Virus record (IMG/VR): IMGVR_UViG_3300009376_000001 | Strand: one strand, 5' to 3' | From: a virus | DNA: 64,000 nt | Shown: positions 10,144 to 49,596 of the stretch, one piece after another | Layout of the letters: each line of letters opens with the position of its first letter | How positions within the stretch are numbered: position 1 is the stretch's first letter | The notes under the pieces: model-generated | The model's input: only the letters and a program-made list of their open reading frames with translations | Told to the model about the DNA's origin: nothing | Databases searched by the model: none | Position numbers and translations under genes: made by a program

Positions 10144-11159
10144 TAGCTAGACCTCCCATTTGAAGGTCGTGGATAGTAATACAAGGTCTGAGGAGTAAGC
10201 TCACCAGACTGATTACGCATCCCGTTTACCAGTTTGAAATGCCCTCGGAGGTCATTAGCATCCGTCTGTTTGACGATTTGTTCGATGCCGTCAACGAATT
10301 GTTCAGCAACTTGCTCTTCATCAGACTTTTGGAAAGACTCACCTTCTACACCGATGCGCTGGTCTGGCATCATTTGTGTAGAAACGGCTTCAGCTTGCTG
10401 CTCTTCACCATAAATGGGAGTGCGAGTAGCCATATCACCGTGAGAAGGATTAAGATTGAAGCTCTTCAAGCCTTTGCGTATGCCATCTTTGACATCTTTA
10501 GCAACGGACTTTTTGAGTTCAGAAATCTCGCCTTGCATTGAAGCATAATGTTGCTTTTCTTGCTCACGAGAACTTAGAAGACCTTTGATGTCCTTTAGAA
10601 GTTCGTTGATGCCATCGGCACTGCGGGCCATGTAATTCTTTTCCATGTCCTCGTCTTCTTCGTCCATCATTTCTTCATCGTCGGCAACATCTTCTTCGAT
10701 ATCTTCGACTTCGTCTTCCATTATGTCTTCGTCATCACCATTCTCATGATGATCTTTTTCTAGACCTTCTGGAATCCGACTGGAATCGCCAGGATACGAG
10801 TATCCTCCGGCTCCATGCATGCCATCAGCCCGTGGGCCACCAGCTTGCACTGCTTGTCCATCAACCATATGTTTTGCGAAGTCAGCCAAAATAGCTTCAA
10901 GATCGCTCTTATGGAGGTATGGATCAGTTCCCTGAGCACCAGCTTTGGTAGAATTGGTACCAGATGAACCCATCTGATTCCGACCTACTGTATCGCCACC
11001 ACTAAGGGGATTTAACTTGTCCACCCAATCATCCGGCAATGCTTTCTGAGAGGCATCTTCGCCACGAACATGGGGTGGATAATTCACTCCATACTCTTTG
11101 ACGATATACTCTCGCAAAGCCTTCAAGATGGGCAGAAGTTCTGAAGTATTGGAAGCCAT
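10143..11159 (-). CDS. Capsid scaffolding protein
   Basis: Acidic and coiled-coil; between protease and capsid; strong RBS. Confidence 0.65.
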   Translation of the reverse strand: MASNTSELLPILKALREYIVKEYGVNYPPHVRGEDASQKALPDDWVDKLNPLSGGDTVGRNQMGSSGTNSTKAGAQGTDPYLHKSDLEAILADFAKHMVDGQAVQAGGPRADGMHGAGGYSYPGDSSRIPEGLEKDHHENGDDEDIMEDEVEDIEEDVADDEEMMDEEDEDMEKNYMARSADGINELLKDIKGLLSSREQEKQHYASMQGEISELKKSVAKDVKDGIRKGLKSFNLNPSHGDMATRTPIYGEEQQAEAVSTQMMPDQRIGVEGESFQKSDEEQVAEQFVDGIEQIVKQTDANDLRGHFKLVNGMRNQSGELTPQTLYYYPRPSNGRSS

Positions 11160-11249
11160 ACTTTGCCCCTCCTAATAGGACTAACTATTATAATAGTATA
11201 AAATATTATAGGTGTCTATATTTTTACCAAAAAATTGCAATAATTATTT

Positions 11250-14162
11250 TTATCTAGGTCGTAAACTTGAATCAAACTCTAATTCTTTAATGTTATAACA
11301 TTCTGGACAAATCATAGGATCTGGTTTTTGTATGATATCTGTAATATATGATTTAGGATTCATTGGAGTAACACACAACGTTACTTCATAAATCTCCAAA
11401 TCAGTTACTTCCGTCCAACATTTACCATGTTCACAAATAGTTTTCTTATCTTTTGCATTACCTGCAATAGAAAATCCTCGCATTCCGCCTTTTAAGACCT
11501 CAGCCATAGCTTTTCTAGAAACTTCTAAATCAGTTCTAAACGCTGCAACCACAAACAGTCCTTCAGGTCGAACCTCGGTTTTCCATTCTTTCCCCGTGGC
11601 ATCTACAAATCTACGTAGAATTTGACCAACCTGGATGCCCGAATGGAAAATGTTCATATTGGCAAATTCTTTTTTACCTAAGAATTTATTCATAGCCCGT
11701 CGCATGCCATCCAAACCAATACGATGACCTTCACGGTCTACAATATAATAATTACCCCATCCAGCAACCACTAAAGTACGACCTGTATCCATTTTTTGAA
11801 TGGAATTCTCAGTTAATACTTTAAACGCTTCATGCTCTCCCAAAGATTCTGGCGTATCACCCTTACCTAACACATAGCTACCTAAATCTTGAGACAATAA
11901 CGCCAAATTGGTGTATTGTTCCGCTGCATTATCATTAATACTGCGTAATCGATGGTCTTCATCTATAAATTGTCTAGTAGCTCGTTCATGTTCTGGTTTC
12001 TGAGATATTGCCGTAGGAGCATATGCTTCTTCATCGTCAGCAATCACATAACTACTAGCTTGATCTAGTCCAATAGGCTGCTGTTCTTTCGGAATTTGAT
12101 GTTCCTGATCTGAAGCTCTTTGCTCCGCATCATCATCTTCGGAATCTCCAGGCTTATGTCGCTCTACAGAACGAGGAGGACGAGTATTATCATCAGATGG
12201 ATATGGAAGTTGAGATACACCTTCATAAGATCCAGCATCCATTGAGTCTTTCAATTGTAAAGCTGAATTATATTTACGTTCTCGTCCAGTACGTCCACCA
12301 TGTGTAGCGGTATGAGTTGCATCTCCTCCGCTTCCTCCAGTGGACATAGCAGTACCTCCACTAAATCCTCCACCGCCTCCGTCGCCTCCAGCACCTCCGC
12401 CTCCACCTGCGCCACCTCCGCCCCCACCTTCTTTCAAAACAGGAGTACGATTAATAGGCTTTAAATTAGAATCATAATCAGATTCTAAATCGGTATCTGT
12501 AGCATCAGCAGGAGCAATCATGGTAACACTGCCATCACCTCCGCCTTCAACCCCCTCTCCGCCCGTACCACCAGAAGCTTTCGTATTTACATCTACTCCA
12601 TCAGTTTCTTCAGGAGAAATATCTATAACAGCACCAGATGAAAAAGCTTGTGTTCCTGTACCAGTTTCTGCACTGGAAAGAGCTTCTCGTCCATCCTCAT
12701 CAGGATCAATAGGCTTTTGAGCATCCCTTTCATTATTAGCATATGCCTTCATAGCTAAGGAGGATTTTTTATTTTCCTCCTCTTCTTTTATCCGACGATA
12801 ATGCTGAGAAGAAGCCATTGTTCCGTCATTTAAAGCTTCAGGATCGTCTACGCCTAATCCACCTTCATTAGATTGCTTTTGTATAGGCTTAGAAGGAACC
12901 CGACCTTCATCTATATCTGAATATTCCAGATTTTTAAAGTTATCATGTTGAGCTTTAATACGACTCGGAACGGTAGCAGTGCCTAATTGATTAGGTTTAC
13001 GGTCATTTTTATTTGATTGCTGGATGCCCTGATCATCATCTCCTGTGCTGAAAGAAGAAGTTGCTCCCTCAACAACATTACCAACTGCACTGCCAATACC
13101 TGATGCAACAGCCCCGACTCCACGAGCTACTCCTCCAGCAATTGCACCCAAAGCAGGAAGAATCTTTTCTATTTCTTGTCCACGGACCTGATGAAGCTTA
13201 TCTTGCCCCTCTACATCATCGCCTTCTTTAAGCTTTACTTTATTAGGAGTAAATACATCCCCAACAGAACTAAAAGGATCTCCTAAATCAGAAACATCTC
13301 GCTGTTTACTAAAAGCGAACCATTCTCCATCTTGTTGAGTTAATCTAATCTCAACTCCGCCAGCATCAGCATTCTTAACTAAGAAAGCAAAACCTTCTTC
13401 CGCATCATTAGGAATATATTCCCGCATGATAACGTTAGGTTTCTTTTCATCAGTTTTATAATTAGCAGGACTCTCTAAATCTTCGTCACTGGTATAGATA
13501 AGGTCACGTACATCTTTTTGTACGCCCTCTATTTCTTCTTCTTTATGTTCTCCGGCTTCCCACGGCTGTTCAGAAACTTCTGCCCATTTTTCGTTCCTCT
13601 CAGCCATAGGTACAGGCTTAAAAAGATCACAATACATCTCTTCTTTGACAGGAAGGTCTATCTTTGTACAATATCCGCCTGCAGCAAAAAAGATACAGGT
13701 ATGACATTCTTCAGCTTCTTTCTCAGAAGGACGATAATTAATAAAATCTAAAACGTCTAAATTACTACGATTATGTTTAATTAGGTTGAGAAAACTCTCT
13801 TCAGAAAATTCTTTAACTAATTCAATACCATCTAAAGACGAAGCTAAATGATCATGTCCTATAGCTGCTAGCATATCCCTAACATGGTCATTACGTGCCT
13901 GAAGAATTTCCCTTAACGCAGCAAAAGAAGGATCAGAACCTTTCTCTTCATCGTCATGAATCTGAGCAACTTGATTATAAAATACAGAAGCTGCTTTCTC
14001 CCCATCAGGACCAGCATAAAGATTATTTCCGTCTAGACGCACAAAAAACACATCATTATGATGTGCTAATTCCACAGCATGGGATTGATCTTGATAAAGA
14101 CTGAGGATATCAATATCCTCTAATTCTTTTATTAATGCATCTAAAGCGTTTAAGTCAGTCAT
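11250..14162 (-). CDS. Prohead serine protease with about 790-aa N-terminal extension
   Basis: C-terminal domain VVAGWG..VDREGH..NIFHSG..GFSIAG..EIYEVTLC..PMNP; N-terminal part has a HiPIP-like Cys motif and Gly-rich low-complexity tracts. Confidence 0.8.
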   Translation of the reverse strand: MTDLNALDALIKELEDIDILSLYQDQSHAVELAHHNDVFFVRLDGNNLYAGPDGEKAASVFYNQVAQIHDDEEKGSDPSFAALREILQARNDHVRDMLAAIGHDHLASSLDGIELVKEFSEESFLNLIKHNRSNLDVLDFINYRPSEKEAEECHTCIFFAAGGYCTKIDLPVKEEMYCDLFKPVPMAERNEKWAEVSEQPWEAGEHKEEEIEGVQKDVRDLIYTSDEDLESPANYKTDEKKPNVIMREYIPNDAEEGFAFLVKNADAGGVEIRLTQQDGEWFAFSKQRDVSDLGDPFSSVGDVFTPNKVKLKEGDDVEGQDKLHQVRGQEIEKILPALGAIAGGVARGVGAVASGIGSAVGNVVEGATSSFSTGDDDQGIQQSNKNDRKPNQLGTATVPSRIKAQHDNFKNLEYSDIDEGRVPSKPIQKQSNEGGLGVDDPEALNDGTMASSQHYRRIKEEEENKKSSLAMKAYANNERDAQKPIDPDEDGREALSSAETGTGTQAFSSGAVIDISPEETDGVDVNTKASGGTGGEGVEGGGDGSVTMIAPADATDTDLESDYDSNLKPINRTPVLKEGGGGGGAGGGGGAGGDGGGGGFSGGTAMSTGGSGGDATHTATHGGRTGRERKYNSALQLKDSMDAGSYEGVSQLPYPSDDNTRPPRSVERHKPGDSEDDDAEQRASDQEHQIPKEQQPIGLDQASSYVIADDEEAYAPTAISQKPEHERATRQFIDEDHRLRSINDNAAEQYTNLALLSQDLGSYVLGKGDTPESLGEHEAFKVLTENSIQKMDTGRTLVVAGWGNYYIVDREGHRIGLDGMRRAMNKFLGKKEFANMNIFHSGIQVGQILRRFVDATGKEWKTEVRPEGLFVVAAFRTDLEVSRKAMAEVLKGGMRGFSIAGNAKDKKTICEHGKCWTEVTDLEIYEVTLCVTPMNPKSYITDIIQKPDPMICPECYNIKELEFDSSLRPR

Positions 14163-16620: not shown

Positions 16621-16657
16621 ATACTACCTCGCATGCCTACGGCAGCTAAATACCGCC

Positions 16658-17200
16658 TCAAGCAGCTTCTAAATGACTTGGATCGCCTTTTTTATGCTTA
16701 CATTTAGCACGAGATTGTTTATCCAAATATCTATTAATTAACGTAACAGGGTCAGCAGATCGATTAAAACCGCCTTCCTGTGGGCCATAGGTCGCAAATG
16801 AAGCAGCAGATGGACCCGTACTGCCTCCCCCTGATCCCGGCTGTGAGGTAGCATGGATACCCATTGAGCCGCCACCAGGAGCACTACCCCAATTAGTAGT
16901 AGGAGCCTGATATACAGTACCAGAACGTCCAATAGTGCCTGAAGCTCCTACTGCCCCACACATATTCTGAGTACACGCTTTGCCTATTTCAGAGCCTTTT
17001 TCATGCCCACAAGGAAAAGTATGTTCATGTTTTTCTACATAACCATCGATAGCTTTCTTAATTAATGAAACTATCATAGATTTAGACGCAAAATCACTAA
17101 GCTTGTCTTCACTCATGCTAGTTTTAGTCTTCTTACCAGCACGAGCACGAGCAAGCTCAGCACCCATAAATCGACGTTGTTTCTCTGATTTAGCTGGCAT
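16658..17200 (-). CDS. Putative internal head protein (MPAKSEKQRRFMG N-terminus)
   Basis: N-terminal motif common in small phage proteins; Gly/Ser-rich; LIKK/VEK motifs. Confidence 0.55.
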   Translation of the reverse strand: MPAKSEKQRRFMGAELARARAGKKTKTSMSEDKLSDFASKSMIVSLIKKAIDGYVEKHEHTFPCGHEKGSEIGKACTQNMCGAVGASGTIGRSGTVYQAPTTNWGSAPGGGSMGIHATSQPGSGGGSTGPSAASFATYGPQEGGFNRSADPVTLINRYLDKQSRAKCKHKKGDPSHLEAA

Positions 17201-18229: not shown

Positions 18230-18813
18230 CGTATAAGCTTGACCACTGAGGTAACATTACCTCTAACTCGACTAGAATATTTAGGCAATGCTGATTGGTT
18301 ATGCTGAATAAAAGAACGTACATGCTCACAACGTTTACGTTGTGTAACGTTTATATCGCAATCTAAATGATGTACTACTAACTTATGTTTTACATCCATA
18401 TATTTAAAAAGCCGATATACATATTCAAAATCTTGAGTTAATACTGTAATCTCTCGTAATTGGTACGTATCATAAAATGGACGACTAGACTTAGTCTTAG
18501 ATACCGTACACGGCATACAATACGTCTTATCTACTTTAATTAATTTCCCACACTCACAATAGTTATCAGGAACTTTAACCGTAACCCATAATTCTTCTTG
18601 AGTAGGATTATGCCTAATTAGACATTTAGCTCCTTTCCAAGTTTGAAATTTATGTTTAATACGAGTATGTAATCGACATTTAGAAGAAGAATTACCCGAT
18701 GTGTGCCACTTATCTAAATCATGCCTAATTACATAAGTTTTATTTTCTACAGCCCTATACCATTTTTTCCATTCAGGATCTGTATCAATATTCACAGTAG
18801 TTAATTCAGGCAA
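18226..18813 (-). CDS. Hypothetical Cys/His-rich protein
   Basis: 195 aa with CECG...CMPC and a SWIM-like C-terminus. Confidence 0.55.
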   Translation of the reverse strand: MPELTTVNIDTDPEWKKWYRAVENKTYVIRHDLDKWHTSGNSSSKCRLHTRIKHKFQTWKGAKCLIRHNPTQEELWVTVKVPDNYCECGKLIKVDKTYCMPCTVSKTKSSRPFYDTYQLREITVLTQDFEYVYRLFKYMDVKHKLVVHHLDCDINVTQRKRCEHVRSFIQHNQSALPKYSSRVRGNVTSVVKLIR

Positions 18814-19953
18814 TTACCATTCCTCAATGTCTGAATCTACAGCTACTTCTTCGAATATTTCCTCATTGTGGTCAGTAAATATATCACATACTGTCAACTC
18901 TAAGGATAATAAATCATCACTATTTGATTTTTGTAGCTGAGTGAACATAGTAGCAATTCTAGAAAGCTTACTTTGTTTCACATTCTTAGAAATTTCTTTT
19001 AATCGTTCAACCGTATCAGATGGGCGATAAACTGTCAATTCATTCATAATATACATACAATCTGCTGCCAATTTAACCATAAATTCAGCAACTTCTACCG
19101 GATTAGCCCCTAAATCCCATAATTGTCTAATAAGTAAGAACCCTTCAGTTAATGTACCAGTACAGCAAATTTGAAACAATTCAAGCGATACTTGCTCAAT
19201 TTCACCATATAAAAACTTAATTACCTGCTCTGGAGGCTCTGAATCAGATAACGTAAGCACCATATCTAAAATATTTTCCGCATCTCTTAAAGAACCATCA
19301 GATTTTCCGATAATACTAATTAAAATATCACGAGACACAGTTCGTTGCTCTGATACGCAAATTCTAGCCAACTTATCTAACATTGCTTTAGGTAGAACTT
19401 TTTTAAACAAAAGAATCTGGCATCTAGAAGATAATGTAACGAATGCTTTATCAGTATCTGTCTCCGACGAAGGATTCTCTGTTGTGCAGAAGACAAAATG
19501 AACATGCTTAGGAGGCTCTTCAACTATTTTTAATAGAGCATTTAATGCTGCTGCAGTTAATTGATGAGCTTCATCGATAATAATAAATTTCTTATCAACA
19601 TGCTGGGGGCGAAGATGTACAGTCTCGATTAACTCACGAACTGCTTCTATTCCTCTATTCGATGCTGCATCTATTTCCATAGCGTCGTGTATTGCGAATT
19701 TACATCCCACACATGTACCACATGCTGTAAATCCTTTTAATTGCTCGCAGTTTGCAACTTTGCACAATATTCTAGCTATTGATGTTTTCCCACTTCCACG
19801 TGGCCCACGAAATAAGTACGCACCTGCAAGTCGTTGTTTTAAAACAGCATTGGATAGAACACGAGAAATTGCATCTTGTCCAACAATTTCATTTAAATTC
19901 TGAGGTCTATATCTATTAAATAAGTTTACCTGGGTGACCATCATCAATCTCAA
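18814..19953 (-). CDS. dnaX: DNA polymerase III gamma/tau-like clamp-loader ATPase
   Basis: RYRPQ..EIVGQ, Walker A GPRGSGKTS, Cys cluster, EIDAASNRG, IIDEAHQL, NALLKIVEEPP, SRCQ, GSLRDA. Confidence 0.92.
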   Translation of the reverse strand: MRLMMVTQVNLFNRYRPQNLNEIVGQDAISRVLSNAVLKQRLAGAYLFRGPRGSGKTSIARILCKVANCEQLKGFTACGTCVGCKFAIHDAMEIDAASNRGIEAVRELIETVHLRPQHVDKKFIIIDEAHQLTAAALNALLKIVEEPPKHVHFVFCTTENPSSETDTDKAFVTLSSRCQILLFKKVLPKAMLDKLARICVSEQRTVSRDILISIIGKSDGSLRDAENILDMVLTLSDSEPPEQVIKFLYGEIEQVSLELFQICCTGTLTEGFLLIRQLWDLGANPVEVAEFMVKLAADCMYIMNELTVYRPSDTVERLKEISKNVKQSKLSRIATMFTQLQKSNSDDLLSLELTVCDIFTDHNEEIFEEVAVDSDIEEW

Positions 19954-20410
19954 TTATTTGACGTTTAAATTCTTCAACCTTATCTAATACTTCAGTATTT
20001 TGACCGATGCGAGCAATATGTTCTAAATGATCAATACGTTCATACATTTTATTAAGACGTTTTGTGTACCCCCGCTTAGTCTTCATATCAGTGGCTGAAG
20101 CTTTAGCATCTTCCAAAGCTTCTAATTTCACGTTAACTTCTCGCATCACATCGGAGATAAATATGTTGTACGCTTCCACCAATTCCTCAATATCGTCTTC
20201 TTCAACATCGGCTTTAACCACGAATAGATTTTTATCCAATGTTTTAAGGGACTTAAAACTATTCGACGAATACGGCATGCAGTACACGCTTTGATTACGT
20301 AAGGCTGCGCCAACACGCCGTAAACCACGAAGCAACCGCACCCTACGGGCCGATTCTTTTGACCCCATGTCGAAAAAGACAAAGCTCCACTCCTTTAATT
20401 GTGTGTCCAT
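19916..20410 (-). CDS. ChrB_N/PaaX-like (Cas2-fold) protein
   Basis: WSFVFFDM..SARRVRLLRGLRRVGA...QSVYCMP pattern. Confidence 0.5.
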   Translation of the reverse strand: MDTQLKEWSFVFFDMGSKESARRVRLLRGLRRVGAALRNQSVYCMPYSSNSFKSLKTLDKNLFVVKADVEEDDIEELVEAYNIFISDVMREVNVKLEALEDAKASATDMKTKRGYTKRLNKMYERIDHLEHIARIGQNTEVLDKVEEFKRQIIEIDDGHPGKLI

Positions 20411-20464
20411 ACCTTTACCTTGTACCTTTCTTTGATTAGATGTTATAAGTATACCAAATTTAAA

Positions 20465-20686
20465 TCACGAAGTCAATACTGAGTTTAATCGTTCTAGAGG
20501 GGTAGTCCCCGCAGAAAAGGTACATCCGTCCCATTTCCAATCACAGCGTAAACATCGATGAGGAAGATTGGGAGTCATAGTAGCATCCTCAAAATGTGTG
20601 ACTCCAATTGAACCACACTGAGGACAACATTCGTGCTGAGTAGTACCGTCTGTATTCTCATTTACCGAAAAATAAACCTGAACCAT
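20465..20686 (-). CDS. Small zinc-ribbon protein
   Basis: CPQCG...RCLRCDWKW; AAGGAG RBS. Confidence 0.55.
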   Translation of the reverse strand: MVQVYFSVNENTDGTTQHECCPQCGSIGVTHFEDATMTPNLPHRCLRCDWKWDGCTFSAGTTPLERLNSVLTS

Positions 20687-20854
20687 ACCATTTCTCCTTT
20701 TACCATAACCTAAGATTGTATCTATATATATTAACTATATATTACTCATTTAAAGACATATATCTTTATATATCTACATAACGCACTTGATAATTTCTAC
20801 AAAAAGTTAGATGATATATCAAGTGCGTATAATTTAACGCATTTGGAGGTATAT

Positions 20855-21427
20855 ATGAGAATAGCATCGTTTGATATTGAAACGACGGACTTGAAAGCTA
20901 ACATGGGAATTGTACTGTGTGCAAGTTTTCATGAAATTGTTCCACCTGGTTATTATTCTAATCATCACGATACCCCAAATAAACCCTATACCTTAAAACT
21001 AAAAATAGAGGACCCCTACGATCCTAATCCTGATAAAGCGTTAGTAATAGCTATTAGAGATGAAGTAGAGAAATATAACGGTATCGTTACATGGAATGGG
21101 AAAATGTTTGATGTTCCTTTCATCAACTCCCGTTTAATGTTCCACGGCGAGCGTCCGGTAAAACCACAATTTCACATAGACGCAATGTACTATGCCGGAG
21201 GTACTGCAAATAGAATTGGTAGCCGACGATTAATATCAGTTCAACAATTCTTAGGTATTAATCCTGAAGAAGGTAAAACTCCGCTAACTTGGGATACATG
21301 GAAATCCGCCATGCGGGGCAGTCCTAAAGCTATGAAAGATGTTGTTAAACATTGTGAAATGGACGTAGTCGTTCTTACTAAGGCGTATTGGGCCTTACTG
21401 CCTTATATAGCTAACATACACAGATAG
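20855..21427 (+). CDS. DEDD/DnaQ-like 3'-5' exonuclease (RNase_H_2-like)
   Basis: FDIETT, TWNGKMFDVPFI, HCEMDV; GGAGGT RBS. Confidence 0.8.
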   Translation: MRIASFDIETTDLKANMGIVLCASFHEIVPPGYYSNHHDTPNKPYTLKLKIEDPYDPNPDKALVIAIRDEVEKYNGIVTWNGKMFDVPFINSRLMFHGERPVKPQFHIDAMYYAGGTANRIGSRRLISVQQFLGINPEEGKTPLTWDTWKSAMRGSPKAMKDVVKHCEMDVVVLTKAYWALLPYIANIHR

Positions 21428-21511
21428 GGATTGCATTTCAAGTTTACGCTTGGTATAATTATACAAACTCACTGTTTTAAGTAAGATACTAAAAGTATCA
21501 CAAGGTGAAAG

Positions 21512-22402
21512 GTGGCATTTTTGGTAGAGCTAAACACACGCCAAAGTTTAGAAAAATACCTAGTTGATAACCCTACAGGAAGAATAAATACCGCAGAACT
21601 TAGCAGAGCATTGGGAGTTTCTCGTCAACGTATATGTAATCTATTAGATACAATGGGAGAAGATAGACATCATAGACTCCCTGCTCTGATTAATCATTGT
21701 AAAACTTGCAAAAAACCTATCAGTAAGCATGCAACGTTCTGTAGAACTCACGCTAAAATTATTGAACGACATCCTGGCGCATACTACCAATGTAGAGTAT
21801 GTCAACAACATAAAGTATTAGAACAATTTGCTAAGAGTAATATTTCATCATCAGGATATGAAACTCGTTGTTTAGATTGCAGAGCTAAGTGGCAACGTAA
21901 TTATTACAAAACGGAGAGAGGTAAACAGAGTCACATTAAAACAACTCGTGCTCTATCTCAGAAACATCCTGAACGACAACGAGCATATTATCAAGTTTAC
22001 AAAGCATTAAAAAATGGAATTATCTCTAAGCAACCTTGTTTTAGATGTAACGCTTCAAAAACCCAAGCAGTACATTCAGATTACCGTAATCCTTTAGACA
22101 TTACTTGGGCATGTTTAACATGCCGTAGTGAATTACCTACTCCTGAAACCTATACTGCAAATCCGCTAGAAGATGGATTCAGGGAATTTATTCGAACTAG
22201 AATAGGTAAAACTAATGGACTAGGAAGATGGTTAGAAATTATTAAACAGCATTACAACATTACATTCTTAACCACTAATATCTTCTTAACGTCCATTAAA
22301 GAATATAAAGAAATCGAAGGATTAGGCCGACAGTACAGAGTCTTAGCATCTCAATATGCTAATGAACTTCTCATCGAATTATCTCCCGAAAACCATACCT
22401 AA
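21512..22402 (+). CDS. HTH + zinc-finger + degenerate HNH-like protein
   Basis: AELSRALGVSRQRI HTH; several CxxC; PCFRC...AVHSDYRNPLDITWACLTC resembles phage HNH (AHHxDYxKPLxVxWLCxxCH) with His substitutions. Confidence 0.55.
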   Translation: MAFLVELNTRQSLEKYLVDNPTGRINTAELSRALGVSRQRICNLLDTMGEDRHHRLPALINHCKTCKKPISKHATFCRTHAKIIERHPGAYYQCRVCQQHKVLEQFAKSNISSSGYETRCLDCRAKWQRNYYKTERGKQSHIKTTRALSQKHPERQRAYYQVYKALKNGIISKQPCFRCNASKTQAVHSDYRNPLDITWACLTCRSELPTPETYTANPLEDGFREFIRTRIGKTNGLGRWLEIIKQHYNITFLTTNIFLTSIKEYKEIEGLGRQYRVLASQYANELLIELSPENHT

Positions 22403-22410
22403 ATGACGTA

Positions 22411-22439
22411 TTGACTTCATCGATTATATTTGGTATACT
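22411..22439 (+). promoter_or_regulatory. sigma70 promoter of the tasA-like gene
   Basis: TTGACT-17 nt-TATACT with extended TG. Confidence 0.75.
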
Positions 22440-22497
22440 ACTGCCATGTCCTCAGAAATGGGGTCAAATTCAAAAGTCAATGTAAGACTATAACTGC

Positions 22498-23598
22498 ATG
22501 GAGAAAGGTATGGTAAAAGCACAGGAGATGGTTACCGATATCATGGGAGACGATGAAGAGTTTTCTCTGGATATGAATAGTATTCGATCCTTTCAGATAG
22601 AACTTGTAAATCGAATCACTAAGGATGCTCTCGATAAAATTGGTTCGAATCCTCAAGGTATGTCAAAGGATGAAATTCGTTTTCTAGTTAGTTCTTATTA
22701 TGGCGTTCAAGAACTACGTAAGCTACTAAAGAATCGAGTTTCGGCTCTCTCAAAGCAAGATGATCCTGCTTCTATGTTCTCTTTTGTTTCTGATGGTATT
22801 GAAACTACCGAGAAAAATATTCAAAAATTCCTAGCAGTTGCTAGCGGTCAGGAAGTAATCGGACAGTGGGCAGAGTCTATACGAGGCATTGGGCCAGTTA
22901 TTTCCGCAGGTTTACTTGCTCATATTGATATGAATAAAGCTCCTACGGTTGGACATATATGGCGGTTTGCGGGATTAGACCCAACATTGGAATGGCTAGG
23001 ACGAGATAAGTCCTCCAAGTTGGTATCTGAACTCATAGAAGGCCGTGGAGCCGAAGTTACTGAAGAACAGTTTGCTCAGATTGCTACTGCAGCTAATCGC
23101 AAAGCAGATACTTTCATGGAACAAGTTCAGAATTTTGCTACTTCAACAGGAAAGGGTTCTTACTTAACCAAAGATAATATAGTTAAAACCCTTTCAAAGC
23201 GTCCTTGGAATGCTGATTTGAAATTAATATGTTGGAAGTTGGGTGAATCCTTTGTAAAGGTTTCAAACCATCCAGAAGATATATACGGTAAAGTCTACCA
23301 AGCACGAAAAATGCTAGAGACTCAGAATAACGAATCGGGTAAGTATGCAGAACAAGCTGCTAAGAAACTGGAACGTGTAGGACGTTCTACCGATGCATAT
23401 AAGTCGTATGTATTAGGTAAACTACCTCCTGCTCACTTACATGCACGAGCTAAACGGTATGCTGTAAAACTATTCTTGGCACATTGGCATCATGTAAACC
23501 ATGAAGCAACATTCGGCACACCTCCGCCAAAGCCATATATCTTGAACCAAGAAGGCCATACGCATTATATTGCTCCCCCTAATTGGCCTATGGCGTAA
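22498..23598 (+). CDS. tasA: TasA-like Nop/IS110-related RNA-binding protein (no RuvC/HNH domain)
   Basis: Coiled coil YYGVQELRKLLKNR, then IRGIGPVISAGLLAHID..GHIWRFAGLDP, KRPWNADLK and HLHARAKRYAVKLFLAHW. No N-terminal DEDD domain. A TIGR-like array is present in the window. Confidence 0.75.
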   Translation: MEKGMVKAQEMVTDIMGDDEEFSLDMNSIRSFQIELVNRITKDALDKIGSNPQGMSKDEIRFLVSSYYGVQELRKLLKNRVSALSKQDDPASMFSFVSDGIETTEKNIQKFLAVASGQEVIGQWAESIRGIGPVISAGLLAHIDMNKAPTVGHIWRFAGLDPTLEWLGRDKSSKLVSELIEGRGAEVTEEQFAQIATAANRKADTFMEQVQNFATSTGKGSYLTKDNIVKTLSKRPWNADLKLICWKLGESFVKVSNHPEDIYGKVYQARKMLETQNNESGKYAEQAAKKLERVGRSTDAYKSYVLGKLPPAHLHARAKRYAVKLFLAHWHHVNHEATFGTPPPKPYILNQEGHTHYIAPPNWPMA

Positions 23599-23603
23599 AT
23601 CAA

Positions 23604-23635
23604 TAGGCCACCTCATTGAAAGGTGGGGTGGCCTA
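23604..23635 (+). terminator. Strong hairpin after the tasA-like gene
   Basis: TAGGCCACCTCATT-GAAA-GGTGGGGTGGCCTA; no U-tract. Confidence 0.5.
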
Positions 23636-23648
23636 GCTAGGATTAACT

Positions 23649-23828
23649 ATGGCTGAGAAAAAAGAATATCAATGTCCAAGAGGACATACTTTTGCAACGG
23701 AATCTCCAATTATCATCGCAGTAGAAGATGACCCTGAATACAATTCAGGAGTAGTGTGTCCATACTGTTATGTGAATTGGTTTAGATTAAATATAAGTGC
23801 AGAGGAATCCTCTAGCCACTCCGCCTGA
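23649..23828 (+). CDS. Small zinc-binding protein (59 aa)
   Basis: CPRGH...CPYC; not in the track. Confidence 0.55.
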   Translation: MAEKKEYQCPRGHTFATESPIIIAVEDDPEYNSGVVCPYCYVNWFRLNISAEESSSHSA

Positions 23829-23844
23829 TTGGTCAGAAAGAATG

Positions 23845-23889
23845 AGTGACCCTAGAGAAACTAGAGTACCATTTGAATCGAGTCAGTAT
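23845..23889 (+). repeat. Single degenerate TIGR-like unit
   Basis: AGTGACCCT-agagaaact-AGAGTACCA-tttgaatcg-AGTCAGTAT; the loop repeat matches the main array exactly. Confidence 0.55.
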
Positions 23890-23954
23890 TGACTTAGTCT
23901 AGAAAATATGGTATAGTACTAAATACAAACTAAAGTAAAGGAGTTTTCGCATAA

Positions 23955-24407
23955 ATGCTATCACGTAGACAAACTTTTCCTAGAAGACGGCCTCTCTTTT
24001 CTAATCTAATTGAAGAATTTCTATCTCCGACGGTCAACAAGGACTCATATACGTCTCAACCTTCTGTCTTTGATGTAGTTCAAAAATTAGATGAAGAACG
24101 AGATATAGCACTTACATATATGTTCCTACCAGGTGTTACATCCGATCAAGTTGATGTCTCAGTAAATTCAACTGCTCACGTTATTAATATAGTAGTTAAT
24201 GTGAATGAGACAGATACTAATGACGTACTAACGCATGTATATGCTAATCGAGTACAAAAGTCATTTCGTATGACCTCAGATTATGATATCGAACAGACGA
24301 CGGTAGATTTGTCTAATGGAATATTAACCCTTACGACACCTCGTCTATCGAAATCCCCCGAATCTATAAAACTACCTATCAATACAAAAACAGAAAAGAA
24401 AAAGTAA
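23955..24407 (+). CDS. Hsp20/alpha-crystallin small heat-shock protein
   Basis: FLPGV..DQVDV and KSFRM..LSNGILTLTTP; own TTGACT/TATAGT promoter at 23889. Confidence 0.75.
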   Translation: MLSRRQTFPRRRPLFSNLIEEFLSPTVNKDSYTSQPSVFDVVQKLDEERDIALTYMFLPGVTSDQVDVSVNSTAHVINIVVNVNETDTNDVLTHVYANRVQKSFRMTSDYDIEQTTVDLSNGILTLTTPRLSKSPESIKLPINTKTEKKK

Positions 24408-24499
24408 GGTTAAGAAACATCCCCCCGAAGGCGGAAGCCGTGCTCCTGTGCGGATTGATTGAATATATGACGAAGCCTAGGGGGGTCTAAAATATTATT

Positions 24500-24811
24500 A
24501 TGTCACTACTAATACTAGCTCTAACAATAATTTTAATAGTCATTCTTTGGTCAACTTTTTGGAAAATTCTAGGATTTATGATATCCTTATTTAGAGGACT
24601 TATAGGACTTCCATATCGTTGGTTAATGAATAAAACAGAATGGGGACGCTTTGATAGAGAGCCTTCGCCATTTACTCCAGAAGATCCATCCTCTATATGG
24701 GTATCGGGCAATAACGGAACCTATTTTAGATATAACATATTAGCTGAAGGAGATGATTGGGATAATCAGGTAGATAATCTCAATTCATTTTATAGGGAAA
24801 ACGGTAAATAA
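24500..24811 (+). CDS. Membrane protein
   Basis: N-terminal hydrophobic helix. Confidence 0.55.
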   Translation: MSLLILALTIILIVILWSTFWKILGFMISLFRGLIGLPYRWLMNKTEWGRFDREPSPFTPEDPSSIWVSGNNGTYFRYNILAEGDDWDNQVDNLNSFYRENGK

Positions 24812-24828
24812 AGGTTAGGAGAACGACG

Positions 24829-25059
24829 ATGTTCGGACTATTTGGCGGAAAAAAGGCTACTACTACTACGGAATCCCCTCTCAAAGATAATGCATACGCA
24901 TTACGCAACGAAATTCACCGCATACAAGAAGAACTGTCCACAGTCTTAGAATCTAAGGGACGTGCAACGAAAGATGAACGTACTGTTATCGTTACGTCTT
25001 CTTTAGATGCGTTTAAGAAAGTAGACAACTTCCTTCTTAAATACATGACAGTAAAGTAG
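24829..25059 (+). CDS. Hypothetical protein
   Basis: AGGAG RBS. Confidence 0.6.
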   Translation: MFGLFGGKKATTTTESPLKDNAYALRNEIHRIQEELSTVLESKGRATKDERTVIVTSSLDAFKKVDNFLLKYMTVK

Positions 25060-25066
25060 CTCACTA

Positions 25067-25435
25067 ATGTTTGAATATTTTTGTAAAGTTACTCGTGTTG
25101 TAGATGGCGACACTATCGATGTGAATATCGATTTAGGATTTCAAATCTGGCATAAAGCTCGTGTGCGAATGCTAGGGATAGACACTCCTGAAAGCAGAAC
25201 ACGTAACAAAGCAGAAAAAGCACTAGGCTTGGCGAGCAAGCAGCGTCTAAAAGACATGCTTAAAGGCCAAAAAGTTAAGATTGCATGTAGCAAAGAAAAA
25301 GGTAAATTTGGTCGAGTTTTAGCTACCGTTATTACTGTAGCTGAAGATGGTACGGAAACTGATTGTAATAATCAATTATGTATCGAAGGACATGCTCGAC
25401 CTTATTTTGGTGGTAAAAAAATCCCGTGGGTATAA
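25067..25435 (+). CDS. Thermonuclease (SNase) family protein
   Basis: RVVDGDT, RVRMLGIDTPE, GKFGRVLA. Confidence 0.88.
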   Translation: MFEYFCKVTRVVDGDTIDVNIDLGFQIWHKARVRMLGIDTPESRTRNKAEKALGLASKQRLKDMLKGQKVKIACSKEKGKFGRVLATVITVAEDGTETDCNNQLCIEGHARPYFGGKKIPWV

Positions 25436-25447
25436 GGTAAAAGATTA

Positions 25448-25942
25448 ATGACTAGAATAACTCCACAATATTATCAAGAGAATAGCGCATCTAGAAGTAG
25501 ATTAGAATGGCTTAAAAAGTTAGTAGAAAATCAGGGACGTACTATTCCTGATGATTTTGATGTTGATGAAATTAGTTGGGTAACAGATCGCCTAGGAATA
25601 ACGGATTTTGAAGGTAGTGAAGAATCTGTACTACAAAACTATTTCACTATTTGTGTTGCTGGAGAATTAGATTCTTCTGCCCAAATAAAAGCTGACTTAG
25701 ATCCGTATTCAGGACGAGTTACCGACGATTTAACAGAATTAGCAGCATTGATACATAAAGTACTTACAGAATCTGATGATTCAAAAGTAGTTGTACACTG
25801 CGCTATGGGAATGGAACGCAGTCCTCTCACAGTAGTGTGGTATTTACACACTTATCATGACATGTCTATTGATGACGCATACGACCTAGCCATTCAAGCT
25901 AGACCAGTAGTGTGTGATCGTCGTGAGTGGATTGATTCTTAG
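25448..25942 (+). CDS. Dual-specificity/PTP-like phosphatase
   Basis: VVVHCAMGMERS (HCx5R). Confidence 0.85.
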   Translation: MTRITPQYYQENSASRSRLEWLKKLVENQGRTIPDDFDVDEISWVTDRLGITDFEGSEESVLQNYFTICVAGELDSSAQIKADLDPYSGRVTDDLTELAALIHKVLTESDDSKVVVHCAMGMERSPLTVVWYLHTYHDMSIDDAYDLAIQARPVVCDRREWIDS

Positions 25943-25954
25943 AGCAGGAGAAGA

Positions 25955-26116
25955 ATGGGTAAATTAATTGAAGCAACATGTCCATATTGTAAAGAGATAC
26001 GTACTATTCAAAAAAGAAATCAATATGACAATGCAGAACGACCCTGTAGACCCTGTTCTATACAAAGAGCAAAGCATTTTCTAAATAAAAATATGTTTAG
26101 GAAAAATGACCGCTGA
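25955..26116 (+). CDS. Small zinc-finger protein (53 aa)
   Basis: CPYC...RPCRPC; AGGAG RBS; resembles 27318..27557. Confidence 0.55.
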   Translation: MGKLIEATCPYCKEIRTIQKRNQYDNAERPCRPCSIQRAKHFLNKNMFRKNDR

Positions 26117-26453
26117 TATTATAAATATCAAACGTATTGAATTTAAAGATGGTACTTTTATAACGTTTGAGCAAGCAGCTAGACGCATACAAAAAGAAAA
26201 TAGACTCGCTAAAGGCTATTGGATTAAAAATGATTTACGTCCTGCAACAGGTGTACTAGAAGAATGGACTCGATGTGGAGATGAAGACTGCATCGAGCCT
26301 TATCTTTGTTACACCCCTGTGAAAAAACGTAGACTTGCTAATAGCTGGTTTGCAGTGTCTATATCAGCTAACAATGATAAAGGCATCGAGGAAACAGCTG
26401 AAGAGCATTGTGTTCGAATGTCTCAATGGTTAAGAAGCTTTAAACGAGGATAA
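26106..26453 (+). CDS. Hypothetical protein
   Basis: Packed ORF. Confidence 0.55.
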   Translation: MTADIINIKRIEFKDGTFITFEQAARRIQKENRLAKGYWIKNDLRPATGVLEEWTRCGDEDCIEPYLCYTPVKKRRLANSWFAVSISANNDKGIEETAEEHCVRMSQWLRSFKRG

Positions 26454-26455
26454 TA

Positions 26456-26854
26456 ATGTTTGCATTAGTAAAATTCGTTGTAGCAATTCTTATAATGTTT
26501 AAGTTGATTCCTAAAAGTCAGTTAATGACTCAACATGATATCACTATTCTAGAAGATGAATTACAACAATTAAGTAAAGTAAACCTTCGGCATTCTGAAA
26601 ACTTAACGAATGCTAAAAAAGAATTAAAAGATATGGAAAAACGATATCAAGATTCTTTTCTCGCAGAAAATGAAGCGAAAGAAAACTTGAAAGCTGCAGA
26701 AAGTCGAATTAAAACTCTTTACCAAGAAAAAACAGAAGCTGTAACAGCAGAAGAAGTAGCTACCCAACAATATTCAGCATTACAAACAGAAATGTTAACT
26801 GCGACAGAGTTATCCACTAAACTAAAAGAGGCATTATCGAAATGGATGAGTTAA
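26456..26854 (+). CDS. Membrane-anchored coiled-coil protein
   Basis: N-terminal hydrophobic stretch followed by a heptad-rich region. Confidence 0.55.
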   Translation: MFALVKFVVAILIMFKLIPKSQLMTQHDITILEDELQQLSKVNLRHSENLTNAKKELKDMEKRYQDSFLAENEAKENLKAAESRIKTLYQEKTEAVTAEEVATQQYSALQTEMLTATELSTKLKEALSKWMS

Positions 26855-27318
26855 TAAGTAACTTAGAACATTGTCTAAGTATATTTGAGGCTCCTACGGT
26901 TGCCTCTACAGAACAAAATGGATTCTTTGTTCGTTCCAGTATTACTCAATTCGGATTAAATTATGCGAATAAAAAAGGCATTACATATGGAATGGACATC
27001 TTTGCACTAGACAATAAGTATCAAGTAACCACCCAAAAAGATATGAGAAAGATTATTGATTGGGATTGGACAGATAATAAAAAATACGTCGCAGAAAAAT
27101 ACGACTGTGACAACTTCGCATTTAGTTTCAAAGCAATGGTTGACAGAAGATTTGGAATAAATAATGTTGGACTAGTTGTGGACTATTCTGGTGGACATGC
27201 TTACAACATTATGGTCTTTAATGACGGCTCAGTGCGTTTATTTGAGCCACAAACGGATCGATGGGCGAGGGTTGGGACAGGTCAATATAAATTTGAAGAA
27301 GGAAAGATTTTAATCTAA
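26842..27318 (+). CDS. Papain/transglutaminase-like cysteine hydrolase
   Basis: YDCDNFA...GHAYN...FEPQTD putative triad. Confidence 0.55.
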   Translation: MDELISNLEHCLSIFEAPTVASTEQNGFFVRSSITQFGLNYANKKGITYGMDIFALDNKYQVTTQKDMRKIIDWDWTDNKKYVAEKYDCDNFAFSFKAMVDRRFGINNVGLVVDYSGGHAYNIMVFNDGSVRLFEPQTDRWARVGTGQYKFEEGKILI

Positions 27319-28199
27319 TGCCTATTGTTGGTGATGAAATAAGAGGAAACGAAATAGGGTATACCACTAAGGGTTCTGCACGAATTTGGTTTGTTTGGGT
27401 TCAATGTCCTGGTTGTTTAGAAGAACGATGGGCTAGAAAAAAATCAGCATTGAATCCAGTAAATAATACGAAAAGACTATGCTCTCCTTGTGCTGTCAAA
27501 CAAGCTAAGACTTTCCGTCTTAATACGGCAAAAGCAGCCGTAGAGGGACGCATTTAAATGAGCAAAGGTAAACACCAAGATCCTACACCTGATGTGGTAG
27601 ATGTAATCTTATATTATTTTGACGAAGGTAAGTGGTTCACTCAGGAGCCTCAACCTCGTCCAATTAGGTTCCATATCATAGGGAAAACTATGGGTTCAGC
27701 TAGATGGCGACCTCATCTAATACAACATAAAGACCCATTGCCTCCTATGAGAAAGAAAAAAGAATATGATGGAATGCTTGAAATACTAAGAGAGGGAATC
27801 TCTCATCAAGTATCGTTAGATTGTGCAACAATAACTAAAGACTTACTTGATGATATTAGCGGAGAGGATGAATAAATGCCCGATAGGCAAGGTAGGATTC
27901 CAGAAGTATATAAATGTATATGCGGAGTAACCATTGCGGATAAACGTAAAAGTTTAAAAAAACATCTTACAACTAAAGCACATTTAGCTTTTGCTGATTG
28001 TCCTCCACATCATTTTCAAATTGGTGTGTCTAATGGGCCACTAAGTGCAGGTTCTTGTATAAAATGCGGTCTAACTAAACAATTTGAAAATTCCATAAAT
28101 TATGGATGGGGTGGCTACCAGCAACGTCAATATGAAGAAGAACAAAAACAGAAAGAACAACAAGAACAATTAGTAGAACAATTAGTAGCTACGGAATGA
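27318..28199 (+). CDS. Three small hypothetical genes (27318-27557, 27558-27875, 27876-28199), two with zinc-finger motifs
   Basis: Abutting ORFs; CxxC and C2H2-like motifs. Confidence 0.55.
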
Positions 28200-28212
28200 A
28201 CGTGAGGGAATT

Positions 28213-29046
28213 ATGCTATCAGTACAAGAGGTACACGATAAAGTTTTATACCCCGTAGTCAGAGTACGAACTGGAAATTCTGGCGGAAGTGGAGTTTTAG
28301 TATATAGTGAGCCGGATCCAAAAGACCCCTCACGATATATTAATATTGCATTAACATGTCAACACGTAATAGATGCTGCTATTAAAATCAGAGAAGAATT
28401 TGATCCCGTCTTAAAACAACAACGAAAAACTGACCACTTTGAAGAAGTTTCAGTTGAAATATTTGATTATGAGGGATCTACGTTAATATCAAGCAATTCG
28501 TCACAAGCTGATATTATCGCCTATGATAAGAATCATGATTTAGCTGCAGTTCGTTTAAAGAATTTTAGAAAAATAGAACACATAGCATCCGTAATTCCAA
28601 ATGATGAAATTAAAGATATGAGGGTTTGGGAACCAGCAATTACCTGCGGATGCAGTCTTTTACATGACCCATTCCCTAATCCAGGAAATATCACTTACCT
28701 TAGAGAAATTATTGAACAAAAAGCATACGTAATGGCGAATGCTCCTAGCATCTTTGGAAATAGTGGTGGCGGATTATTTCATGGAGATACTGGACATTTG
28801 TTAGGATTAACCAGTCGTGTCACTGTGAATCAACTAGGATTCGGATTAGATGTCCAAACATGGATGAATTTTTCTACACACCCTGATAGATTGTATGAAT
28901 TTTTCGAACATCAAGAATTACAATTTCTATATGATGATTCTGATGATTATTATTCAGCGATTGACCGTAGAGAAGTTAAAAGGAAGAACGCATTGCGTTC
29001 AATCTTATTTGAAGATTATGGCGTAGAGCCATCTCCTAATATCTAA
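28213..29046 (+). CDS. Trypsin-like serine protease
   Basis: GSGV, LTCQHV (His), HDLAAV (Asp), GNSGGGL (Ser). Confidence 0.85.
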   Translation: MLSVQEVHDKVLYPVVRVRTGNSGGSGVLVYSEPDPKDPSRYINIALTCQHVIDAAIKIREEFDPVLKQQRKTDHFEEVSVEIFDYEGSTLISSNSSQADIIAYDKNHDLAAVRLKNFRKIEHIASVIPNDEIKDMRVWEPAITCGCSLLHDPFPNPGNITYLREIIEQKAYVMANAPSIFGNSGGGLFHGDTGHLLGLTSRVTVNQLGFGLDVQTWMNFSTHPDRLYEFFEHQELQFLYDDSDDYYSAIDRREVKRKNALRSILFEDYGVEPSPNI

Positions 29047-29072
29047 TTGGTTAAGTTACGAAGGAGTAATGC

Positions 29073-29619
29073 ATGCCAGTATATGATTACCGAAGGACCG
29101 AGATGAATGCCAGCGATTTGCCGGATCAAATATGCATTGTATTAACGCCACAAGCATCAAAATCAGGTGATGGACAGATAGGACAGTCAGGCGCAGTTAC
29201 TCTAGAGACTATAGATATAACTGCGTATTTACCTATTTACACAGATTATCAAATAGCCCTGCAAGAAAACCCAAACTGCCCGATATATGTAATGAGCTTA
29301 GTAGACTTTAAACGTAGATTAGGCATGCCCATATAAACTAAATATATAAAGAGGTGCGAGCATGGATTCCCAATTTAGCATAATTACGGTAGCCGAGCGT
29401 CAACACGCTATGAAAATACTACATGATTATGCAGATACTACTCATTTTCCAGAACAGCTGGATAGGATATTACATCATCTTTTGCAGAAACAAATGCTCC
29501 ACACCTTACATGAAATTACCGACAAAATCTTACATTGCGGATACGTGATAGACCAAGTTAAACATATAGCCAATGAATTAACCGATCAACATGATACACA
29601 CTTGACTTCACTCACTTAA
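29073..29619 (+). CDS. Two hypothetical genes (29073-29336, 29362-29619)
   Basis: Each preceded by an RBS. Confidence 0.55.
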
Positions 29620-29659
29620 ATATGGTATACTACTAGTATCATATTAAAGGAGTACATAA

Positions 29660-30016
29660 GTGAGTCACCCAGAGACTTTCGAACAAGCCATGGATCTCAT
29701 ACTCGCAGAAATGCGAGAACTAATGTTAGATAGGCAGTATAAGTACGGGCCAGAAAACATTAGGGGTATGGGTATTCATGGCTTAATTGTTCGTATTAAT
29801 GATAAATTAGCTAGGATTAAAGAAGACCATAAAAATTGCTCTTTCTTAGGTGAATGTTCATTACGAGAATTACCTGACGAAGCTCGTGAAGACGCATGGA
29901 AAGACTTAGGAAACTATGCAGGAATTATCGCCTTAATGGTGATGCGAGATACTTGGGGATTACCGTTAGAGTATGACCCTACGATGGGTGCAGAAAATGA
30001 CTCCCACTCCGACTAA
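29660..30016 (+). CDS. DUF1599/Nmad1-like nucleotide-modification-associated protein
   Basis: KYGPENI..VRINDKLARI..DAWKDLGNYA; promoter TTGACT/TATACT at 29602. Confidence 0.65.
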   Translation: MSHPETFEQAMDLILAEMRELMLDRQYKYGPENIRGMGIHGLIVRINDKLARIKEDHKNCSFLGECSLRELPDEAREDAWKDLGNYAGIIALMVMRDTWGLPLEYDPTMGAENDSHSD

Positions 30017-49510: not shown

Positions 49511-49596
49511 GCAGGGGTGGCGAAACGGTAAACGCATTGGACTTAAAATCCAACACCTGTAAAGGTTTGAGGGTTCGATTCCCTCCCCCTGTACCA
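49511..49596 (+). tRNA. tRNA-Leu (anticodon TAA)
   Basis: GCAGGGG/CCCCTGT acceptor stem, TTGGA-CTTAAAA-TCCAA anticodon arm, long variable arm, GTTCGATTC T-loop, encoded CCA. Confidence 0.93.

Follow-up and report, generated by a model that had tools for sequence, protein, structure and literature searches.

TIGR-Tas systems bind DNA under RNA guidance, need no PAM, are very compact and are in active development as tools. The proteins TasA, TasR and TasH carry 36-nt tigRNAs and recognise their targets through tandem spacers (PMC12045711). TasA has a Nop-type RNA-binding fold and a helix-hairpin-helix (GIGP...) in common with IS110/IS621 recombinases and archaeal Nop5, and a published survey describes the Nop core of dual-repeat TasA proteins as compact, with minimal variation. 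Target binding by TasA proteins has been demonstrated in EMSA, as has a reversible repression of transcription (10.64898/2026.09.09.750476), and the orientation of the target follows from an outer junction that holds the first paired spacer base (10.64898/2026.08.11.744272). In SpTasH, residues Y289 and H296 process the pre-tigRNA, and the wedge loop together with a beta-hairpin forms the docking surface of the HNH domain (PMC13421893). The locus described here resembles FpTasA from Flavonifractor plautii (PMC12045711), likewise a solo Nop-domain protein that is nuclease-free and is accompanied by a dual-repeat array of 36-nt tigRNAs. It also resembles SpTasH of the Salicola phage CGphi29 (9W03, 9W04, 21KL; PMC13421893), which is likewise encoded by a phage and combines dual repeats with 8-nt heteroduplexes.

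The window analysed here, 64,000 nucleotides in length, is the minus strand of bases 46145-110144 in a 141,341-bp IMG/VR record with direct terminal repeats, rated as complete. The features of the locus are collected in Table 1. The open reading frame at 22498-23598 very probably encodes a nuclease-free TasA that belongs to the dual-repeat TIGR-Tas system of a tailed marine phage. Its likelier start is the ATG at 22510 rather than that at 22498, because a GGAG lies 8 nt before it and the closest homologue, the 93%-identical P0001, begins at the matching residue. The gene is the single Tas gene of the complete 141-kb phage genome and is present in a single copy. A comparison of its core with that of a related phage (L005) reveals 101 synonymous and 5 non-synonymous codon differences, which corresponds to strongly purifying selection. 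Searches of the INPHARED phages with tasA (blastn, tblastn) gave no match, and no relative was found among viral contigs by a single-sequence search.

Table 1. Position of the gene, its protein elements and the associated non-coding features in the window.
Feature	Position	Strand	Detail or basis
Promoter-like site (TTGACT, 17 nt with TG, TATACT)	22411..22439	+	3' end 58 nt upstream of the listed tasA start
tasA	22498..23598	+	366 aa as listed; 362 aa from the likelier ATG at 22510
Coiled-coil helical hairpin, residues 57-117	22666..22848	+	AF2 helices 57-86 and 92-117, pLDDT >90
Wedge module, 67 residues (167-233), four-helix lobe in the wedge loop	22996..23196	+	alignment, AF2
Y347...H354 dyad	23536..23559	+	aligned with SpTasH Y289/H296
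G+C-rich hairpin just past the tasA stop, without U tract	23605..23634	+	sequence
Relic single TIGR unit with degenerate edge and intact loop TAGAGTACCA	23840..23880	+	repeat scoring
Promoter-like site of the same class as that of tasA	32976..33004	+	~545 nt upstream of the array, followed by three small ORFs
Dual-repeat TIGR array, ~53-56 units of 36 nt	33549..35807	+	36-nt periodicity, repeats

An earlier note on this DNA had taken the protein for a nuclease-less, TasA-type RNA-guided DNA binder and not for a transposase, and profile and structure comparisons with Tas and IS110 proteins point in the same direction. The NCBIfam TIGR-Tas model NF052498 gives TasA 169.1 bits against a curated cut-off of 100, whereas the IS110 model NF033542 stops at 26.6 bits with a cut-off of 140. 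The NF052498 match spans residues 60-333 but just 213 model positions, and an insertion of about 60 residues is therefore visible already at this level. Among solved structures, the only significant matches in a sequence search were TaTasR (9MTY, E 2e-14) and SpTasH (21KL and others, 2e-8). The sole Pfam match at E<=10 is a partial one to Transposase_20 (residues 126-172, 25.7 bits) that covers the helix-hairpin-helix part only, and DEDD_Tnp_IS110 gave no match at the same threshold.

The partial Transposase_20 match could also be read as the trace of a degraded or domesticated IS110-family transposase that is unconnected with the array. The 'transposase' label of PHROG 4285, which TasA matches, and of several homologues' source annotations favours that reading, as does the occurrence of the IS621 and ISCro4 recombinases among the weak fold matches. 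This origin is nevertheless extremely improbable: the IS110 score lies far under its cut-off while the curated TIGR-Tas model is passed, the DEDD/RuvC domain is absent, the guide-processing dyad is conserved, and the gene sits as a single copy at a fixed syntenic position in related phages, thus showing no behaviour of an insertion sequence, and is under strong purifying selection. The expectation that pipelines would label the protein a transposase proved right for PHROGs and for several sources, but not for the 2026 NCBIfam, which would return 'TIGR-Tas RNA-guided endonuclease'. The latter product name would be misleading for a nuclease-free TasA.

An AlphaFold2 model of TasA, built from 64 homologues, displays the Nop architecture with a pLDDT of 88 and a pTM of 0.83. 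The best ten matches of this model in Foldseek are all TasH or TasR chains, with SpTasH first, and IS621 and ISCro4 come after them at weak E-values. The motifs that had been quoted for the protein are all found in the translation (GIGP at 130-133, IWRFAGLDP at 154-162, KRPWN at 234-238 and HARAKRYAVKLFL at 315-327). The coiled coil that had been noticed by eye corresponds to two confidently modelled helices that align with the coiled coil of TaTasR and SpTasH, and is predicted to be the dimerisation element of the Nop fold; a structure prediction for two TasA copies reached a score of 0.26, with the mark at 0.42. The 56 residues that precede the coiled coil consist of an acidic, disordered stretch and a single helix of low confidence. 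Neither Pfam at E<=10 nor the AlphaFold2 model reveals an HNH, RuvC or DEDD domain in TasA, as the earlier note had claimed, and no Cys/His or acidic catalytic motif is present in the wedge module. In contrast to a nuclease centre, the residues that would serve guide processing are kept. H354 is invariant in family alignments of 18 and of 64 sequences, and Y347 is invariant in the former and nearly so in the latter. Likewise, W246, which pairs with the junction aromatic Y238 of TaTasR, is invariant in the family.

The array begins 9,951 nt past the tasA stop codon, which bears out the separation of 10 kb given previously, and is the only 36-nt-periodic region of the whole phage genome. Because this genome holds only one Tas gene and only one such array, the two are taken to belong together. 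Each unit comprises an edge repeat (RAATGAATCA), an 8-nt spacer A, a loop repeat (RANAGTAYCA) and an 8-nt spacer B (10+8+10+8 = 36 nt), with a spacer A that is occasionally 9-10 nt long. The units are arranged in three blocks (33549-34325, 34486-34557 and 34603-35807) that are separated by repeat-free stretches of 160 nt and 45 nt, and they include 53 recognisable loop repeats plus three degenerate ones. The spacer pairs of the 42 strictly parsed units are all distinct. No long ORF was found within the array, and no Rfam family matched within 20000-37000. The orientation assigned to the array is a probable one that rests on the gene context and on repeats ending in YCA. Upstream, a unit-like sequence of good score on the + strand (33140-33175, TAATGAACCA-8-GAGAGTTCCA) lies 400 nt before the array, and two adjoining weak ones, also on the + strand (31335-31405), overlap ORFs at 31.3 kb; these could be further relics or chance matches. 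On the other side, after a small ORF behind the array, two 75-nt direct repeats on the + strand (36042-36178), each with a GGAGTC...GACTCC hairpin, may mark the end of the array transcript, although they have no U tract.

The proposal that the gene has its own promoter agrees with the promoter-like site upstream of tasA, which belongs to a recurrent class. The pattern TTGACTN16-18TATANT occurs in 21 copies in the window, where 0.32 would be expected by chance, and 20 of the 21 lie on the + strand. These sites, which run from 20448 to 62438, have the form of an extended -10 promoter (TTGACTT...TGnTATAnT), and the 20 + strand copies fall within the 20-64 kb block. The motif probably marks early/middle transcription units of the phage. 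A site of the same class stands ahead of tasA and ahead of the array, and we therefore infer that the two are separate transcription units under one promoter class. The sole tRNA of the window, a tRNA-Leu with anticodon TAA, is located at 49511-49596 on the + strand.

A common gene order surrounds tasA in relatives whose TasA is 51-93% identical. The clamp loader and AAA genes lie on one strand, and the other carries the HTH/zinc-ribbon gene, tasA and the genes for Hsp20, a staphylococcal nuclease (SNase) homologue, a phosphatase, a methyltransferase and a deaminase. In the window, the gene directly upstream of tasA (21512-22402, +) encodes a protein of 296 aa that starts with an HTH and contains several zinc ribbons of the CxxC type. 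One of these ribbons is HNH-like (CFRC...VHSDY..PL..W.CLTCR) with R/K at the expected last His; this protein shows 54% identity in relatives, where it also adjoins tasA. An RNase H-superfamily/PolB-exonuclease-like protein (20843-21427, +) recurs only in L005, L006 and L007. The SNase homologue (25067-25435, +) and a dual-specificity phosphatase (25448-25942, +) recur in all relatives read (L002, L005, L008). A 59-aa zinc-ribbon ORF (CPxxH...CPYC; 23649-23828, +) lies between tasA and the relic unit and is absent at the corresponding place in the 93%-identical relative L005.

The distal position of the array is conserved, the array being located 7-9 kb downstream of tasA in all relatives that are readable far enough (L002, L005, L007, L008). 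In L002, whose TasA is 71% identical, a 13-unit array follows directly after tasA in addition to a middle and a distal array. The three L002 arrays (11043-11615, 16646-16950 and 18260-20194) are on a single strand and were parsed into about 62 units altogether. A hairpin comparable to the one 3' of tasA in the window is found in both L005 and L002, and the adjacent array of L002 begins right behind it. At the place of this adjacent L002 array, a single degenerate unit whose loop repeat is intact remains in L005, and another in the window. The adjacent array thus appears to have decayed in the lineage of the window, so that the distal one became the main array. One spacer pair is identical between the window and L005, whose tasA is 81% identical at the nucleotide level, and several differ by single changes; one pair is common to the window and L002. 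Judged from these comparisons, array turnover is fast. An array about 10 kb from its tas gene and under its own promoter sits at the edge of the 10-kb flank used in the published array finder, so that some Tas genes counted as "array-less" may in fact have their array at a distance.

A working scheme can be drawn up by analogy with the characterised Tas proteins. The tasA gene and the distal array would be transcribed separately from two copies of the recurrent sigma-70-like promoter. TasA would dimerise via its coiled coil, bind the edge and loop repeats of the array transcript, and trim this transcript with Tyr347/His354 to 36-nt tigRNAs. Each of the two 8-nt spacers of a tigRNA would base-pair with a different strand of an uninterrupted 16-bp target; the target sequence would consist of spacer A and then, in reverse complement, spacer B. 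Lacking a nuclease, the complex would stay on the unwound and bent target and block transcription or replication there. We infer RNA binding, RNA processing, DNA binding and repression by TasA from its likeness to characterised relatives; repression has been shown for stem-loop TasA proteins, whereas that of the window is a dual-repeat one.

Targets were sought with 49 guides in both arrangements, A+rc(B) and rc(B)+A. None was found in the array-masked phage genome at 0-1 mismatch, and at 2-3 mismatches the self-target counts (3/47 and 2/62) were on a par with the 4/73 and 4/45 of same-strand controls. No guide thus matches the phage's own genome, which points to foreign targets; a competing phage or mobile element, or alternatively the host, is the likeliest candidate. 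In IMG/VR, the 16-mers of two guides that are kept in relatives occur in 110 and 16 contigs; a same-strand control gave 79 contigs and the other arrangement 24. Once the matches had been grouped by their flanks, about 49 independent sites of these two guides compare with 55 for the control, and there is no target enrichment. The published survey likewise found short spacers in general to be without target enrichment over controls.

These results also bear on the possibility that TasA is not a repressor but a structural or recombination aid, which would use RNA-guided bending for replication, packaging or recombination. TasR imposes a bend of about 180 degrees on its target, and Faure et al. 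raise the idea for TasA (PMC12045711); moreover, tasA heads the early/replication region, beside clamp-loader and exonuclease genes. Guides that match nothing in the phage's own genome cannot, however, direct TasA there, and the published tests show repression (10.64898/2026.09.09.750476), which makes such a role very unlikely. A repressor directed at foreign DNA is the reading that we retain.

This TasA is remarkable for its wedge. The gap between W166 and K234 contains 67 residues, close to the 65 extra residues estimated earlier, compared with 4 in short homologues of 267-285 aa. According to the published partition, the wedge of TaTasR is G210-K230 (21 aa), which corresponds by alignment to G159-N238 of TasA, a stretch of 80 residues. 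The module folds in the AlphaFold2 model into four helices and two short bridging strands, with a pLDDT above 90 within the whole TasA and of 81 when predicted alone. Superposition with VIA-align retrieved EF-hand pairs (Z 5.0-6.4, rmsd 2.8-3.9 Å over 65-81 residues), values that fall in the chance range for helical domains, and an atlas search placed its own Tas family on top, with EF-hand proteins at TM 0.52-0.63, again within the chance range for such domains. Foldseek found nothing at E<=0.001 in the PDB for the module, and its language-model look-alikes are unnamed viral clusters with scores below 0.9. The loops that comprise residues 180-191 and 216-227 are devoid of the acidic calcium ligands of the EF-hand pattern (DxDxDG...E). 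The module may thus weakly resemble EF-hands, and in topology only. An intragenic guide array of the kind seen in BlTasA was rejected, as the tasA coding sequence contains no scoring TIGR unit.

The module is not confined to this phage. When a profile of the module alone was compared with 1.84 billion representative proteins, at least 123 clusters matched at E<=0.001. Almost every one conforms to the Tas pattern, with a length of 320-480 aa and the module located around residues 135-260. A considerable group of dual-repeat TasA proteins bears a folded module at the DNA-unwinding wedge. A few long proteins with several short module matches look spurious, and ten atypical matches gave no nuclease domain when compared with Pfam. 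One module-bearing TasA homologue of 779 aa (P0233) contains an intein downstream of the module, with Hint, LAGLIDADG and intein-splicing Pfam matches.

Long and short forms are interleaved in a tree of the TasA core, calculated by a quick IQ-TREE search after removal of the module columns, and its well-supported branches demand at least three changes between them. The flanking DNA of P0043 (long) and P0110 (short) is about 90% identical, and P0110 has a 25-nt linker-coding stretch in place of the roughly 205 nt of P0043. The short forms have the linker 'xKGxK' in common. The pattern looks like two old wedge alleles that were lost or exchanged repeatedly. Within the module, 33 synonymous and 10 non-synonymous codon differences separate the window from L005; by these counts the module is under purifying selection, yet it evolves faster than the core. 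Both a module-bearing system (L009) and a short one (L010) have GAGCGAGCCA/GAGAGCACCA repeats and 8+8 spacers, and the lobe does not co-vary with guide format. Natural short alleles have arrays of equal format, so the module should not be needed for guide handling, and it is best regarded as an optional accessory rather than a part of the core mechanism. The long and short wedges represent a natural allele pair in which the role of the wedge in R-loop stability or partner recruitment can be addressed.

What the module would do is a matter of conjecture. The wedge of SpTasH helps to dock the HNH domain, and an enlarged wedge in a nuclease-free TasA could therefore plausibly stabilise or shield the open junction, or offer a docking surface, the earlier note having suggested a partner-docking domain. 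In a more specific version, which is rather unlikely, the module would be a swappable adaptor, the short 'xKGxK' linker and an EF-hand-like lobe of 60-90 aa being two ancient alleles that recombine between TasA genes, and the lobe would dock a phage or host factor at the unwound target or guard the complex against an inhibitor. If this were true, TasA would turn from a passive roadblock into a recruiter, and the long/short polymorphism would reflect an arms race. No partner protein for the wedge module was found.

TasA could also be the targeting half of a two-part nuclease and recruit a separate nuclease, possibly through the wedge module, the candidate partners being the HTH/zinc-ribbon protein encoded at 21512-22402 and the SNase homologue encoded at 25067-25435. 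An EF-hand-pair fold often binds helical peptides, and the module has an EF-hand-pair-like topology, but this resemblance falls short of the noise level given for helical domains. The upstream protein matches PHROG 2340 'endonuclease' (E 1.3e-15), yet it has no Pfam or PDB nuclease match, and its HNH-like motif has R/K at the position of the last metal-binding residue, which in the HNH consensus is a His. The upstream gene adjoins tasA across the relatives with TasA proteins of 51-93% identity; this synteny, however, represents one phage lineage, and the module-bearing L009 and L240 have different upstream genes. Although the wedge loop and beta-hairpin of SpTasH offer a precedent for nuclease docking (PMC13421893), such a division of labour is distinctly improbable for the present system, and a TasA that acts by binding alone is preferred.

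With regard to the described systems, TasA itself, dual-repeat phage arrays, flexible array positions and repression by TasA are already published, TIGR-Tas having been known since 2025. We found in the literature neither a folded wedge module in a dual-repeat TasA, with its long/short dimorphism, nor an array with some 55 units placed at the 10-kb limit of the detection flank. Arrays usually have 5-15 units and lie beside the gene (PMC12045711), in contrast to the ~55 units at 10 kb in the window. The array of FpTIGR has 18 variable nt per unit and thereby differs from the 8+8 format found here, whereas SpTIGR, with 16 variable nt, has the same 8+8 format. From IS110/IS621 recombinases and Nop5, the TasA of the window differs in several respects: it lacks both a DEDD/RuvC domain and a fibrillarin-type partner, it does not pass the IS110 model, and it is not mobile.

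At the protein level, the coiled coil and the Nop core are common to TaTasR (9MTY) and the TasA of the window. TaTasR, however, combines a RuvC domain (about 110 aa) with a wedge of 21 aa and spacers of 9 nt, compared with a 56-aa N-terminal region and an 80-aa wedge in TasA. The region before the coiled coil shortens from about 110 residues in TasR and about 85 in TasH to 56 in TasA, and SpTasH combines an N-terminal HNH domain with a short wedge, neither of which is present here. MbTasA, BlTasA and PlTasA are nuclease-free like the TasA of the window and bind target DNA, and MbTasA represses transcription (10.64898/2026.09.09.750476, 10.64898/2026.08.11.744272). These three are stem-loop proteins, whereas the system of the window is of the dual-repeat type and keeps the loop. 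The wedge coding region of BlTasA holds tigRNA units, unlike that of the window. Nonetheless, the stem-loop TasA proteins have, as does the TasA of the window, accessory elements around the unwinding junction, the position of the wedge included.
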